A stretch of DNA of 64,000 nt from assembly GCA_017416205.1 (NCBI GenBank), contig JAFQDC010000007.1, positions 6,022-70,021 of the forward strand. Reading direction: 5' to 3'. The notes beneath the pieces are model-generated. The model had not been told where the DNA came from, searched no databases, and was given only the letters and a program-made list of their open reading frames with translations. The DNA comes from Clostridia bacterium (GTDB lineage: Bacteria > Bacillota > Clostridia > Oscillospirales > CAG-272). Shown here piece after piece: positions 1,050-6,061 of this stretch. The position numbers and the translations under genes were made by a program. How positions within the stretch are numbered: position 1 is the stretch's first letter; each line of letters begins with the position of its first letter.

Positions 1050-1448
1050 ATGAAGATTAAAAAGAGTCTCTTTATAGCATTACCTCTTGTTGCATTGATA
1101 CTTGAACTGCTTCCATACGGAGTTGTTCTGAACTTTGCAAATCCCGATGGCGAACCGTGGCGCAGGACATATTCCTATTTCAGACTGACACCATACGGAT
1201 ATGCAAACTTCGGTCCGTTGATCACTGCCATACTGACTTGTGTTTTGCTCGTGTTGGTGGTTATCTATCTGTTCAAGCCACGAAAGGGACTGAACACCGC
1301 TATTTTGAATGTTGCTGGATTTGCAACCGCAGCATCCCTTATGCCGCTGATGTTTGGATTTGATTACGTTACGGTAATCGGTGTCATTATTACCTTACTT
1401 CTATCAGGGACTTTTGGAATTTGTTTTATTAAAAACAGGAGAGTCTGA
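1050..1448 (+). CDS. small integral membrane protein
   Basis: AGGAGG at 1037-1042, 7 nt before the ATG. 132 aa with about 4 hydrophobic spans. A terminator follows at 1562-1592. Confidence 0.6.
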   Translation: MKIKKSLFIALPLVALILELLPYGVVLNFANPDGEPWRRTYSYFRLTPYGYANFGPLITAILTCVLLVLVVIYLFKPRKGLNTAILNVAGFATAASLMPLMFGFDYVTVIGVIITLLLSGTFGICFIKNRRV

Positions 1449-1561
1449 GAGATTAAGCGCTGATACAGATGGAGTTGAAAAAGAAATAGTATAATTGTGA
1501 GAGTTCGAATTCATACGCAAAACTGCTGAAAATATCTTTTTTGTAGCCCATAGACAAAAAG

Positions 1562-1592
1562 AAAGCAACCCAATCGGGTTGCTTTTCTTTTT
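1562..1592 (+). terminator. rho-independent terminator
   Basis: AAAGCAACCC / loop AATC / GGGTTGCTTT (10-bp perfect stem), followed by TCTTTTT. Confidence 0.6.
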
Positions 1593-1655
1593 ACCTGAGA
1601 AAGATTTGAGCCGAGTGCCGAGCACCGGCAAGATCAGTCATATATTTACCAACTC

Positions 1656-1684
1656 TTGACAAACATATCTATATTTGATATACT
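1656..1684 (+). promoter_or_regulatory. sigma-A type promoter for the erm leader transcript
   Basis: TTGACA (1656-1661), 17-bp spacer, TGaTATACT extended -10 (1676-1684). Lies about 40 nt upstream of the leader ORF. Confidence 0.5.
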
Positions 1685-1721
1685 AACAAGGTAATTAAAA
1701 TTTTAGGAGATTAAACACTTC

Positions 1722-1748
1722 ATGTTTGTCATTCGTACTCGTAACTAA
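1722..1748 (+). promoter_or_regulatory. 8-codon leader peptide ORF (MFVIRTRN) of the erm attenuator
   Basis: ATG 1722 preceded by AGGAGA (1705-1710). The stop TAA at 1746-1748 directly abuts the 5' arm of the terminator hairpin. The peptide contains R-T-R. Confidence 0.55.
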
Positions 1749-1797
1749 GCGCAAAAATTCCCAATTTTTCATTTAAGGGGATTTTTGCGCCTTTTTT
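1749..1797 (+). terminator. attenuator (intrinsic terminator) between the leader ORF and erm
   Basis: GCGCAAAAATTCCC (1749-1762) pairs with GGGGATTTTTGCGC (1777-1790), 14 bp with one G-U. A 14-nt loop, then CTTTTTTG. Confidence 0.6.
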
Positions 1798-1829
1798 GCG
1801 ATTACGATTAACAAATGAGGTGTTTTTTT

Positions 1830-2609
1830 ATGTCCAAAAATCAAAATAATAATATTCCGTATACAGTTTCACAGAATTTTCTGACTTGTCGAAAAACCAT
1901 TGACCGATTGATACGAATAGCACGACTACAAAACAGCGATACCGTTTTGGAAATAGGCGCTGGAAAAGGCCATATAACCAATGCTTTATCCGATAAGTGC
2001 AAAAAAATAATATCTTATGAAATAGATAAGCATTTGTATGACCGCTTAAAATATCAGATTAGCAGTAATGTTTGTTTACGCCATGGCGATTTTCTGAAAT
2101 GTCGCCTGCCGCACGAACAATATAAAGTTTTTGCCAACATTCCTTTTTCAATTACAACAAGTATCATAAACAAACTAACAACTGCAAATCCTCTACCACA
2201 AGGAATGTGGGTGATTATGGAAAAAGGCGCGGCAAAACGTTTTTGCGGGAAGCCCAAAGAATCGTTGAATTCTTTACTTATTAAGCCGAAATATGATACA
2301 AAAATTGTATATCACTTTCGCCGTGAAGACTTTCACCCTGCACCAAGTGTAGATGTAGTCATGTTAGAATTCCGAAAGAAAGAGAAAGATGATGTGTCAT
2401 CTGTTCAATGGAATGACTACTGTATGTTTATTCAACACAGTATGAAATACGGTATTTTCGGAAAAAATGCGTTACTGACAAAAAAACAAATAGACACAGC
2501 CTTGAGATTGGAGGGCTTACCTAAGATAGTGCCATCGGATGAAATATTATATATCCAGTGGTTCTGTCTGTTTCGATGTTGGCTACGTTGGGGGAAACGC
2601 ACAAAATAA
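1830..2609 (+). CDS. erm: Erm-family 23S rRNA (adenine-N6) methyltransferase
   Basis: SQNFLT motif, SAM site LEIGAGKGHIT and NIPFSITT motif. About 259 aa, collinear with ErmB/ErmC as I remember them. GAGGTG at 1817-1822 lies 7 nt before ATG 1830. The track start at 1815 lacks an SD. Confidence 0.85.
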   Translation: MSKNQNNNIPYTVSQNFLTCRKTIDRLIRIARLQNSDTVLEIGAGKGHITNALSDKCKKIISYEIDKHLYDRLKYQISSNVCLRHGDFLKCRLPHEQYKVFANIPFSITTSIINKLTTANPLPQGMWVIMEKGAAKRFCGKPKESLNSLLIKPKYDTKIVYHFRREDFHPAPSVDVVMLEFRKKEKDDVSSVQWNDYCMFIQHSMKYGIFGKNALLTKKQIDTALRLEGLPKIVPSDEILYIQWFCLFRCWLRWGKRTK

Positions 2610-2636
2610 TACTAATTTTTAACTAATAGATTTAAT

Positions 2637-2672
2637 AATCGACATTCTTCCAAAGAGGAATGTCGATTATTT
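2637..2672 (+). terminator. putative terminator after erm
   Basis: AATCGACATTC / 10-nt loop / GAATGTCGATT (11-bp perfect stem). The T tract (ATTTGC) is weak. Confidence 0.45.
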
Positions 2673-2827
2673 GCAATTGCTAACACTTTGTAGTTTACGC
2701 CTACTTGAACCACTAATACTTAACACAAAAAGAGAATCACATCACAAAACAGGATATGGACATATGCGACCTTTTCGGATAAAATACAGACAGAAGCTTC
2801 TAAAATCATTAAAAAGAGGTAATTAAT

Positions 2828-3754
2828 ATGTCTAACGTATTTGCCGAAAATTTAAGAAAGCTCCGACTTTCAAAAAAGCTCACGCAGGAGCAGGTTGCAG
2901 AACACCTCGGTGTTACAGTGCAGACAGTTTCGCGCTGGGAATGCGGCAATGCTCTTCCCGACGTTCTCAGACTTCCCGAAATAGCAAAGCTTTACTGCGT
3001 TACGGTTGATGATTTTTATAAATCAAATTCCATAGCATATGCAAATTATGCGGAGCGGCTTTTATCTGTTTATGAAAAGACAGGTCTACCTGAGGATTTC
3101 CTTGCAGCTGAAATTGAATTTCAAAAAATGATCAAGCTTGAAAACATGACAATGAGAGATATGTACAACTATGCAAATCTTAACGATCAGATGTATATAA
3201 ACTCTCAAAGGAAAGCTCTTGACTGGTACGATAAGATCCTTGCAAGAGATCATACAGAGGACCCACTCTCATACTATAAAGCACTTGACTTTAAAATAAG
3301 GATTTCGCACGAAAGCGGAGACGGATACGAAAAACTGATCCCTTATCTCAAAAAAAGAGTTGAAAGAGACAGAAACAATCCTAACGAATGGCAATCACTT
3401 TGCGAAGGTCTCTATTACTGTGAACGCTATGAAGAACTTGATGAAACTCTCAGAGAAGCGATCAAGCTTTTCCCCAACAATGGAACTCTTTATATTCAGC
3501 TTGCCTCAGTACACGAGCATTACGGTCGCTATGATGAAGCTATAAAGTGCTACGAGAACGCCGAAAAGCTTGATACCGAGAAGCACAACGAGATTTTCTG
3601 TAAAGCGGTCTCCTACGATATTTACATGGGTGAATATGAAAAATCATATAACACATGGCTGGAGCTTGCAAAGCTTTACAAAAACGAAGGACTTGACGTT
3701 GACGCAGAAATGGCTATGAGAGAAGCTGAAGCTGTAAAAACAAAAATCAGATAA
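2828..3754 (+). CDS. XRE-family HTH regulator with TPR-like C-terminal domain
   Basis: N-terminal HTH_3 signature LRKLRLSKKLTQEQVAEHLGVTVQTVSRWECG. About 240 aa of helical repeat follow (YYKALD, YIQLASVHEHYGRYDEAIKCYE). Confidence 0.75.
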   Translation: MSNVFAENLRKLRLSKKLTQEQVAEHLGVTVQTVSRWECGNALPDVLRLPEIAKLYCVTVDDFYKSNSIAYANYAERLLSVYEKTGLPEDFLAAEIEFQKMIKLENMTMRDMYNYANLNDQMYINSQRKALDWYDKILARDHTEDPLSYYKALDFKIRISHESGDGYEKLIPYLKKRVERDRNNPNEWQSLCEGLYYCERYEELDETLREAIKLFPNNGTLYIQLASVHEHYGRYDEAIKCYENAEKLDTEKHNEIFCKAVSYDIYMGEYEKSYNTWLELAKLYKNEGLDVDAEMAMREAEAVKTKIR

Positions 3755-3763
3755 ATACTTCTT

Positions 3764-3795
3764 GAAGCACACCTTTCGGTGTGCTTCTTGCTTTG
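3764..3795 (+). terminator. rho-independent terminator
   Basis: GAAGCACACC / TTTC / GGTGTGCTTC, followed by TTGCTTTGG. Begins 10 nt after the stop codon. Confidence 0.55.
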
Positions 3796-3952
3796 GCATA
3801 AAAGATTTAAACCTCAACAAAGCGATTAGTCCTATCTCCTTCTATACTCAGGAGTAAAGAATCAGTACCTTATCTTCCTACAGTCAATGGGTACTTGTAA
3901 ATACGGGTTGAAATAGAACATCATTGGCTTTAGTCACATTAACTTTAAAGAG

Positions 3953-3987
3953 AAATGGGCAGTCACAAATACAGTGACTGCCCATTT
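3953..3987 (-). terminator. putative terminator of the gap/XRE-TPR transcript
   Basis: AAATGGGCAGTCAC / AAATACA / GTGACTGCCCATTT (14-bp perfect stem), 20 nt beyond the minus-strand stop at 4008. The U tract is poor. Confidence 0.4.
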
Positions 3988-4007
3988 CAATTGATATTAA
4001 TATGTTT

Positions 4008-6061
<2,054 letters not shown>

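Follow-up and report, generated by a model that had tools for sequence, protein, structure and literature searches.

An erm gene in the window (the whole 64,000 nucleotide stretch of Clostridia bacterium DNA that was analyzed) is preceded by a very small regulatory element, in which an eight-codon sensor and one RNA hairpin probably switch the gene on when a drug jams the ribosome. The element is real and well backed by comparison with related loci, and it follows a design already proven in Bacillus subtilis, that of the tlrB gene. The reading we favor, and consider likely, is that the gene is antibiotic-inducible and lies under a tlrB-type dual attenuator made of a single RNA rod. Eighty genome loci, mostly from Oscillospiraceae and other gut Clostridia, were examined; 41 of them are compact, and every one of these has the element. 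The comparison set is 43 distinct homologous loci, mostly in Oscillospiraceae gut MAGs, and the 41 compact loci were folded. All of the features discussed below lie on the plus strand.

The gene itself (bp 1830–2609) encodes a 259 amino acid protein with the motifs SQNFLT, EIGAGKGHIT, and NIPF, the last two of which, for SAM binding and catalysis, align with ErmAM. It matches the rRNA adenine dimethylase family PF00398 with 140.9 bits, and it aligns at full length with ErmAM (1yub, residues 6–254) and ErmC' (1qam, residues 13–251). KsgA chains align only to about residues 11–182 (the N-domain), and the C-terminal RNA-binding domain is of the Erm type. The first-pass annotation had taken the gene to be erm-type rather than KsgA/RsmA-type, and we agree that it encodes an Erm-type 23S rRNA adenine N6-methyltransferase; its score with the ksgA model TIGR00755 is 121.6 bits against a cut-off of 171, and its C-terminal domain aligns with Erm proteins but not with KsgA. 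With NCBIfam model NF000499 (Erm23S_rRNA_broad) it scores 210 bits, 2 bits below the cut-off of 212, and for this reason resistome surveys that use the NCBI threshold could miss it. That small shortfall could be taken to favor a housekeeping KsgA/RsmA-like enzyme with an upstream open reading frame (uORF) and hairpin that are incidental, but this is scarcely credible in the face of the ksgA score, a C-terminal domain that matches ErmAM and ErmC' and not KsgA, a uORF and rod that are conserved in 43 loci, and the fact that erm and a neighboring HTH-TPR gene form a 2.2-kb block (1618–3794), with a flanking repeat, whose genomic location differs between two Avispirillum genomes. It is likely a macrolide-resistance gene, and the enzyme's target should be A2058.

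The MLS nomenclature defines an Erm class by at least 80% amino acid identity to its prototype. The nearest named class, Erm(Q) of Clostridium perfringens, is only 44.8% identical over 96% of the length, the next are Erm(42) (about 41% over 73% of the length) and Erm(B) (31%), and so this Erm lineage is far from every named class; relatives with about 60% identity (P0043 and P0057) carry the NCBI Erm name. The nearest named class gives no help with the regulation, since the region upstream of the erm(Q) copy that was examined has no comparable RxR leader.

Upstream of the gene lies a sigma-A-type promoter (1656–1684) with TTGACA at 1656–1661, a 17-nt spacer, TATACT at 1679–1684, and an extended −10 TG at 1676–1677. 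It agrees with the consensus at 11 of 12 positions, is the top promoter-like site in a scan of 1300–3000, and is retained as TTGACA...TGATATA(C/A)T in the closest relatives (L082, L085, and L086); transcription is predicted to start at about 1691–1692. Next come the leader Shine-Dalgarno (SD) sequence AGGAG (1705–1709; GGAG or GAGG at the equivalent place in relatives) and an eight-codon open reading frame for MFVIRTRN (1722–1748; ATG at 1722 and TAA at 1746–1748). The 12 nt between this SD and the ATG is a long spacing and counts against the model. The erm SD (GAGGTG, 1817–1822) and ATG (1830) follow only after the hairpin described below. Promoter, leader, and erm start are thus all present as the first-pass annotation had placed them.

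MFVIRTRN has the makings of a "+x+" leader, namely a short uORF with its own SD directly upstream of a resistance gene and an R/K-x-R/K triplet inside. The triplet is Arg-Thr-Arg, encoded by CGT (1734–1736), ACT (1737–1739), and CGT (1740–1742), and by analogy with ErmDL and TlrB the predicted arrest site has the ACT codon in the P site and the second CGT codon in the A site. The suggestion that Arg-Thr-Arg is such a motif was well founded, as R-x-R is conserved at the amino acid level in the 43 distinct relatives and no other part of the leader is. The arrangement of uORF, hairpin, and SD is repeated in all of these loci, while leader length, hairpin size, and distance to erm all differ among them through indels. 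The leaders have 7–11 codons and end with R-x-R followed either by the stop codon or by one extra codon and then the stop. Both arginines are invariant, and no other residue is; the first is encoded by five synonymous codons (CGT, CGC, CGG, AGA, and AGG) and the second by CGN codons only. The residue between them is Ile in 38 leaders, Thr in three, and Leu and Arg in one each. The window's leader is therefore atypical in its Thr, and Asn after RxR is found in no other, which counts against the model; those of its closest relatives read MLAIRIRK, MFVIRTRK, and MSVKRIIRIRK.

A leader with two nearly adjacent arginine codons might instead sense arginine supply or translation stress in general, such that any slowing there gives read-through that is not specific to macrolides. 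If Arg-tRNA were scarce, a ribosome paused at codon 7 would presumably sit just where the drug-arrested one does, and the restriction of the second arginine to CGN codons could be read in the same way. We nevertheless regard this as highly improbable, as the regulated gene encodes an Erm methyltransferase, the first arginine is also encoded by AGA and AGG, and R-x-R is a documented macrolide and ketolide arrest motif. In addition, there are only two arginine codons and the intervening Ile is conserved in 38 of 43 leaders, which points to a peptide motif rather than to codon counting.

The hairpin (here called P2; 1749–1797), which the first-pass annotation had correctly described as 14 bp long with a T run and as starting on the nucleotide after the leader stop codon, resembles an intrinsic terminator. 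Its arms, GCGCAAAAATTCCC (1749–1762) and GGGGATTTTTGCGC (1777–1790), enclose a 14-nt loop and form 14 bp with −20 kcal/mol; C1791 and a run of six Us (1792–1797) follow, so that there are six Us among the eight nucleotides after the stem. It is not a textbook terminator, and a simple terminator scan did not call it because the scan allows loops of at most 8 nt, against 14 nt here, and because a C intervenes between the stem and the U-run; like the tlrB terminator, it may need NusA to function. At most loci the GC-based stem is directly followed by at least five Us in eight nucleotides, but six loci (L012, L014, L023, L029, L032, and L033) have no clean U-run, so that termination cannot be a feature of every family member.

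The position of this stem is set relative to the RxR codons. Counted from the first base of the x codon, the first P2 G-C pair lies at 12 nt in 20 loci, at 13 nt in 13, and at 14 nt in two, and so the hairpin starts at +12 to +14 in 35 of the 41 loci (+12 in the window). The distance from the stop codon to the stem is 0–2 nt when there is an extra codon after RxR and 3–5 nt when there is not; the register of the stem base is tied to RxR wherever the stop codon falls. This bears on whether the arrest that drives the switch occurs elsewhere in the leader, either at the stop codon through blocked release, for which MsrDL is a precedent, or at FVI, which we take to resemble the ErmCL motif. Were TAA in the A site, the ribosome would hide 10 nt of the 5′ arm, and the corresponding masked fold has no hairpin (−5.8 kcal/mol). 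Such sites are very improbable, however, as the stem begins anywhere from 0 to 5 nt after the stop codon but at a fixed distance from RxR, the two arginines are the only invariant residues, and leaders such as MLAIRIRK, MCNRIRK, and MGTKIRLRK have no FVI; an ErmCL-like FVI sensor was rejected on this last ground.

With the ribosome placed at RxR, the GC base of P2 (GCGC, 1749–1752) lies at +12 to +15 from the P-site codon, and its pairs are those that adjoin the U-run. Masking a footprint of −15 to +15 removes these four GC pairs and weakens the fold from −25.4 to −11.0 kcal/mol, but a mask of −12 to +12 costs P2 only one pair. Because the stem begins exactly at the mRNA entrance (+12), occlusion is limited to about 4 nt and depends on where the real edge of the footprint is. 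The proposal that an arrested ribosome would cover the 5′ arm of the terminator thus stands for the basal four nucleotides or so, but not for the rest of the arm. There is no sign of an antiterminator: when either P2 arm was masked, the best alternative folds had only −5.5 and −8.2 kcal/mol, compared with −25.4, and the classical alternative-hairpin model was rejected.

The first-pass annotation saw the element as a compact transcription attenuator that has no separate antiterminator, a view that agrees with the lack of alternative pairing and with the 12–14 nt register, but it missed a second layer in the form of a helix that sequesters the erm SD. In the minimum free energy (MFE) fold the whole leader is one rod, at whose base (helix P0) the leader start region pairs with the erm SD region. 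The 5′ or anti-SD strand of P0, AAACACTTCAT (1713–1723), takes in the spacer as well as the first two nucleotides of the leader ATG, and its 3′ strand, ATGAGGTGTTT (1815–1825), contains the erm SD, so P0 belongs to a long hairpin that hides both the resistance gene SD and the leader initiation region, as in tlrB. Below the terminator the rod is extended by helix P1, in which GCGATTACGA (1798–1807) pairs with leader codons 5–8 (TCGTACTCGTAA); P1 is based on individual MFE folds of the window and all 41 compact loci, as MAFFT columns shift with U-run length. The RNA from 1690 to 1850 folds with −53.4 kcal/mol, compared with −24.0 ± 3.4 for 200 dinucleotide shuffles (z = −8.6), a structure well beyond chance. 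The same nested rod with a sequestered SD is found in 41 of the 41 compact loci folded, and RNAalifold retains the P0 core. Across 37 sequences this core is 95.7% paired, and compensatory changes from UA both to AU and to CG occur in it; the P2 base is 95.4% paired, with double changes at five of its seven pairs. In all, 56 cells are changed on both sides; none of 500 shuffles reaches the observed values, and slid controls are all far lower. From this long-range helix between the leader start and the erm SD it follows that the element would be both a transcriptional and a translational attenuator.

A rod of this kind might also suffice by itself, with attenuation being only translational: the rod would hide the erm SD, the hairpin would have no useful termination activity, and the sole role of the U-run would be base pairing with the A-rich codons and stop codon (AAC/AAA TAA). 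The SD-sequestering rod is indeed universal, the relatives with no U-run still have it, and the imperfections of P2 (its loop, the C before its U-run, and its absence from the simple scan) fit such a role. We think this unlikely, although it deserves some weight. At most loci the U-rich tract does follow a GC-based stem, the conserved register is from RxR to the stem base rather than from RxR to the anti-SD (which, depending on the locus, is anywhere between 12 and 24 nt 5′ of the P site), and tlrB, which has the same layout, terminates in vitro (PMC6851288). Furthermore, the anti-SD (1713–1721) sits 5′ of the ribosome footprint, and masking the ribosome leaves P0 intact in the fold, with the SD base-paired; because P0 is outside the footprint, stalling by itself does not obviously free the SD. 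This last point also weighs against translational de-repression in the dual model.

The dual attenuator that we favor would operate as follows. Transcription would begin near 1692, and a ribosome would load on the leader while the downstream half of the rod is still to be made. If no drug is present, it would complete MFVIRTRN and depart, and the hairpin (1749–1790) and U-run would stop most transcripts at about 1795–1798, to give a terminated RNA of about 105 nt; any read-through RNA would fold into the full rod, in which the 1713–1723/1815–1825 pairing should silence erm and block re-initiation on the leader. When a macrolide or ketolide occupies the exit tunnel, no peptide bond would form between the P-site MFVIRT-tRNA (ending in Thr6) and the A-site Arg7-tRNA, which is the +x+ arrest. 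The leading edge of the arrested ribosome would then hold GCGC 1749–1752 (+12 to +15), the terminator base that adjoins the U-run. All that could then form is a weak, A/U-rich stem set off from the U-run, and RNA polymerase would proceed into erm. The same ribosome would keep all of the P1 5′ strand melted and so reduce the rod from −53 to about −24 kcal/mol, and the melted P1 would probably open the erm SD to 30S subunits. Since methylation of A2058 should end drug binding and arrest, the loop would be self-limiting.

A scan of the whole window for other modules of SD, short ORF, RxR, and hairpin returned the erm leader alone, and a metagenome scan with ATTCGYATTCGYAARTAAGC for the module in front of other genes returned six chance matches and no leaders. 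Rfam gave only sub-threshold chance matches, of which MIR9563 (1707–1831) is merely the long hairpin and Phe_leader (1522–1591) is the bidirectional terminator of the upstream gene. The literature available for searching contained no description of this Oscillospiraceae Erm leader.

The element reveals no new regulatory principle, but the comparison yields a rule that is directly testable, namely that structure begins 12–14 nt after the P-site codon. The Ile/Val/Phe/Cys-rich leaders ending in IRIR, with their resemblance to the tlrB leader MIIQFIRYR, might be adapted to 16-membered macrolides rather than to erythromycin; one of these, tylosin, is used in the meat industry (PMC6851288). With doubts that outweigh our confidence, this and the other observations might be joined into a wider reading, in which RxR-stop plus structure at +12 to +14 would be a general and portable "ribosome-edge" module, taken up independently by the unrelated rRNA methyltransferases Erm and RlmA(II) (the latter in Bacillus) and, inside a single Erm superfamily, by two distinct RNA architectures, with the IRIR leaders tuned to 16-membered macrolides and with the 2.2-kb block implying a large inducible and possibly mobile Erm reservoir in gut Oscillospiraceae. 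If this were true, that reservoir would be mostly unannotated and would lie at the edge of curated detection thresholds.

In the classical ermC and ermA systems, much as proposed here, the SD of the erm gene is base-paired and repression is lifted when a macrolide stalls a ribosome on a uORF. The ermC attenuator has four segments with alternative 1:2/3:4 and 2:3 pairing and a 19 amino acid leader with IFVI, and it is not known to have a terminator. The window's element has instead one rod, an eight amino acid leader, RxR, and a predicted terminator, and it has no mutually exclusive hairpins (no alternative exceeds −8.2 kcal/mol in strength). The claim that design and leader differ from those of ermC is thus correct with respect to the single nested rod, but the design is not new, as it is that of tlrB. 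With the "RLR" leaders (ErmDL, MefAL, and MsrAL), which are short uORFs ahead of macrolide-resistance genes, the window's leader has the R/K-x-R/K arrest motif in common. MefAL (MTASMRLR) also has eight amino acids and ends with RLR and then the stop, and the more distant Erm relatives L049 and L055 carry exactly this leader. ErmDL, which arrests at Arg6-Leu7-Arg8, is different in having 14 amino acids with the motif mid-peptide, and the RLR systems, as described for hflXr, use alternative terminator/antiterminator or alternative SD-sequestering hairpins, whereas the window has no alternative pairing. MsrDL is similar in that a ribosome stalled on a short leader (six amino acids, MYLIFM) directly obstructs a Rho-independent terminator, that of msrD (Fostier et al. 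2023, PMC10314930); it differs in that it arrests at the stop codon through blocked release-factor action, has no +x+ motif, and regulates an ABC-F protein.

The closest counterpart is tlrB (yxjB) of B. subtilis, shown experimentally to be under a tylosin-inducible attenuator of both transcription and translation (Yakhnin et al. 2019, PMC6851288). Its nine amino acid leader MIIQFIRYR ends in RYR, with a toeprint at U74; according to its authors, the ribosome stalled there contacts the terminator at its base and prevents formation of an SD-sequestering hairpin that also blocks leader translation (PMC6851288). From the toeprint we calculate that the terminator base, G71/G72, lies at +12/13 from the P-site codon. 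The likeness to the window is extensive: a very short I/F/V-rich leader that ends with R-x-R just before the stop (here eight codons, with RTR as residues 5–7 and a single codon between it and the stop); arrest, predicted in the window, with the P site occupied by x; a terminator base (predicted in the window) at the leading edge of the ribosome; no antiterminator, none being described for tlrB; a long SD-sequestering hairpin that also blocks, or in the window would block, translation of the leader itself; and a 23S rRNA methyltransferase as the target gene. On the other hand, the tlrB leader region is 177 nt long rather than about 138 nt, its leader has tandem stop codons, and its inducer is tylosin and not erythromycin. 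It also requires a NusG-dependent pause, whereas the pause motif TTNTTT is not enriched in the Erm leader family (seven of 43 loci, with 4.6 expected) and is absent from the window's hairpin region, where other signals might nevertheless cause pausing. Finally, the tlrB enzyme is RlmA(II), which methylates G748. Since the regulated gene here is of the Erm type, the element should work like a tlrB leader but is not a tlrB locus. The tlrB design, which combines a leader with RxR at its C-terminus, a terminator whose base meets the ribosome's front edge, and a self-locking, SD-sequestering rod, is thereby extended to the Erm methyltransferases.

The leader region of the window's erm gene contains every element named in the first-pass annotation. 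The promoter, TTGACA (1656-1661) and TATACT (1679-1684) separated by 17 nt with a TG at 1676-1677, matches 11 of 12 consensus positions and is the top-scoring promoter-like site of its region in a promoter scan. It is followed by a Shine-Dalgarno (SD) sequence AGGAG (1705-1709), whose 12-nt gap to the AUG is counted as a caveat, and by the eight-codon ORF MFVIRTRN (ATG 1722 to TAA 1748). The first nucleotide past this stop begins a 14-bp hairpin stem (P2; 1749-1762 with 1777-1790; loop 14 nt, -20 kcal/mol), after which come C1791, six U residues (1792-1797), the erm SD GAGGTG (1817-1822) and the erm ATG (1830; ORF end 2609). RNA 1690-1850 folds at -53.4 kcal/mol vs -24.0 +/- 3.4 for shuffles (z = -8.6). 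The large loop and the C ahead of the U-run are non-ideal features of the predicted terminator, and a simple terminator scan passed over the hairpin (1749-1790), because its loop is longer than that scan allows.

The erm product scores 210 bits against the NCBI broad Erm model (cut-off 212) and contains PF00398. The original erm-type call stands, as the ksgA model gives 121.6 bits, below its cut-off of 171, and the solved structures of ErmAM and ErmC' align over the whole protein while KsgA chains align only with its N-terminal domain. Among named classes, C. perfringens Erm(Q) comes closest at 44.8% identity, with Erm(B) and Erm(C) trailing at ~31%. Its relatives number >1300, mainly gut-metagenome proteins without a name, and a genome scan gave 80 loci, chiefly in Oscillospiraceae, Ruminiclostridium and Lachnospiraceae MAGs; among them is one (98% identity) in a MAG of Candidatus Avispirillum, a genus within Clostridia. 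A literature search found no description of this Erm lineage or its leader.

Window 1618-3794 and positions 2789-4963 of the Avispirillum locus (L001) form a 97.7% identical block with unrelated flanks. This 2.2-kb block holds the promoter, leader, erm and an HTH_3/TPR regulator gene (2828-3754, +); the latter is one of two convergent genes for XRE-type HTH + TPR proteins immediately downstream of erm, and the other (4008-5027, -) lies outside the block. The erm and HTH-TPR pairing also occurs at a further locus (L082). In L001 the block lies directly behind tRNA-Ser(GCT) (2645-2736); the whole window has no tRNA genes. The left edge of the block in L001 and its right edge in the window (3765-3813) carry a ~49-nt hairpin plus GCTTTGGCATrAAAGATTTrAACC; at the window's left edge only AAAGATTTGAGCC (1602-1614) is left of it. 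The block looks like a relocated or mobile cassette. A bidirectional terminator-like hairpin, GAAAGCAACCC...GGGTTGCTTTT (1561-1586), separates the erm promoter from the upstream gene (1050-1448) and explains sub-threshold Rfam Phe_leader and Leu_leader matches.

The compact layout of the window's leader recurs in ~40 of the 80 loci and in three metagenome contigs with the closest relatives (72-79% identity). Among 43 distinct leaders of 7-11 codons (for example MIVIRIRK, MCVIRIRK, MFVIRIRK, MLAIRIRK, MFVIRTRK, MGIIIRIR, MINRICRIR, MGTKIRLRK and MLIRIRQ), the sole invariant residues are the two arginines in the R-x-R at the C-terminus. Codons for the first are CGT, CGC, CGG, AGA and AGG, a synonymous variety that places selection at the amino-acid level. 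At x, 38 leaders have Ile, three have Thr (the window's among them), one has Leu and one Arg; the stop directly follows R-x-R in 19/43, the others having one extra codon, usually Lys. The window's leader is thus atypical in its rare Thr at x and its unique Asn past the motif. Counted from the start of the x codon, the hairpin's first G-C pair is 12 nt away at 20 loci, 13 at 13 and 14 at two. The gap between stop and stem, in contrast, is 0-2 nt in leaders that have the extra codon and 3-5 nt in the others, and indels alter the length of the leader, the size of the hairpin (12-33 bp) and the span to erm (75-121 nt). What is constrained is therefore the register between RxR and the stem, and not that between stop and stem.

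All compact loci are predicted to fold as a single nested rod. P0 joins the erm SD to the spacer and the beginning of the leader AUG; P1 pairs the U-run, GCG and spacer with leader codons, among them that of the second Arg and those of the A-rich end; P2 is the GC-based hairpin at the apex. In an alignment of 37 distinct compact leaders (of 38 distinct loci, L068 was left out as beyond the 100-nt limit) the P0 core is paired in 95.7% and the P2 base in 95.4% of cases, with 56 cells of both-side changes; none of 500 shuffles matched these pairing statistics and every slid control was much lower. The window has its own compensatory P0 change, AAACAC/GUGUUU vs UACAC/GUGUA in most relatives.

The effect of an arrested ribosome was modeled by masking -15 to +15 around a P site placed at ACT 1737-1739. 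The mask strips four G-C pairs (GCGC 1749-1752) beside the U-run, leaving an A/U-rich stem displaced from it (-25.4 to -11.0 kcal/mol), so the earlier proposal that the ribosome covers the 5' arm holds for the base of the arm and not for all of it. Masking either arm gave best folds of only -5.5 and -8.2 kcal/mol, and, together with loss of the GC base, this lack of a better alternative pairing supports the predicted antiterminator-free switch. In the modeled full transcript P0 would also lock up both the erm SD and the start of the leader itself, a second, SD-sequestering layer absent from the first-pass model. P0 persists under the mask, since its 5' strand sits just upstream of the footprint, yet the whole-rod energy falls from -53.4 to -24.3 kcal/mol, making translational de-repression of erm plausible. 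Under the mask, CUUC of the anti-SD strand (1718-1721) can instead form a weak 4-bp hairpin with leader SD GGAG (1706-1709), so this strand is complementary to both SDs, the leader's and erm's. The first-pass finding is real and its interpretation essentially right.

Six compact loci (L012, L014, L023, L029, L032, L033) have no clean U-run past the hairpin, which is continuous with the lower stem and has tails of CUUGUUAU or UUAACGAA; these are probably translational-only versions. More distant Erm relatives (L038-L073) keep RxR leaders. Eleven such loci (L038, L040, L041, L047, L049, L054-L056, L065, L072, L073), with leaders including MTASMRLR, MPASIRLR, VLYSMRIRK and MGIIIRIR, have longer leader regions (~200 nt) with several hairpins and alternative pairings GGCAATAAAAA / TTTTTATTGCC / GCAGGAGG; in 11/11 the x codon is followed at +13/14 by the start of GGCAATAA, their first conserved element. 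On C. perfringens plasmid NZ_CP102307 (L081), erm(Q) has no such RLR leader upstream; a uORF, MIMNGGIASIRLRG (2290-2340), that carries an RLR motif precedes an hflX gene downstream of erm(Q) and resembles the Listeria hflXr attenuator.

The comparative value of the family lies in a spacing rule that holds across it and in a lineage of resistance genes that lies close to annotation cut-offs. Of the known systems, B. subtilis tlrB/yxjB is the nearest parallel, alike in architecture and spacing and similar in peptide composition: its 9-aa leader MIIQFIRYR ends in RYR, and a toeprint at U74 that depends on tylosin corresponds to a ribosome with Tyr in its P site and Arg in its A site (PMC6851288). 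The tlrB terminator base at G71/G72 (PMC6851288) is by our calculation +12/13 from the P-site codon. The stalled ribosome binds nucleotides required for that base and also prevents an SD-sequestering hairpin, itself repressive for leader translation; tylosin induces and erythromycin does not (PMC6851288). The motif for NusG-dependent pausing in tlrB shows no enrichment across the 43 loci. Relatives in kind are ErmDL, arrested at Arg6-Leu7-Arg8 (PMC8298421), MefAL (MTASMRLR), MsrDL, where ribosome stalling obstructs a Rho-independent terminator (PMC10314930), and the hflXr RLR uORF, which works through alternative hairpins (PMC6310831). By sequence and analogy, then, the window's leader appears to be a tlrB-type dual attenuator ahead of an unnamed Erm class.
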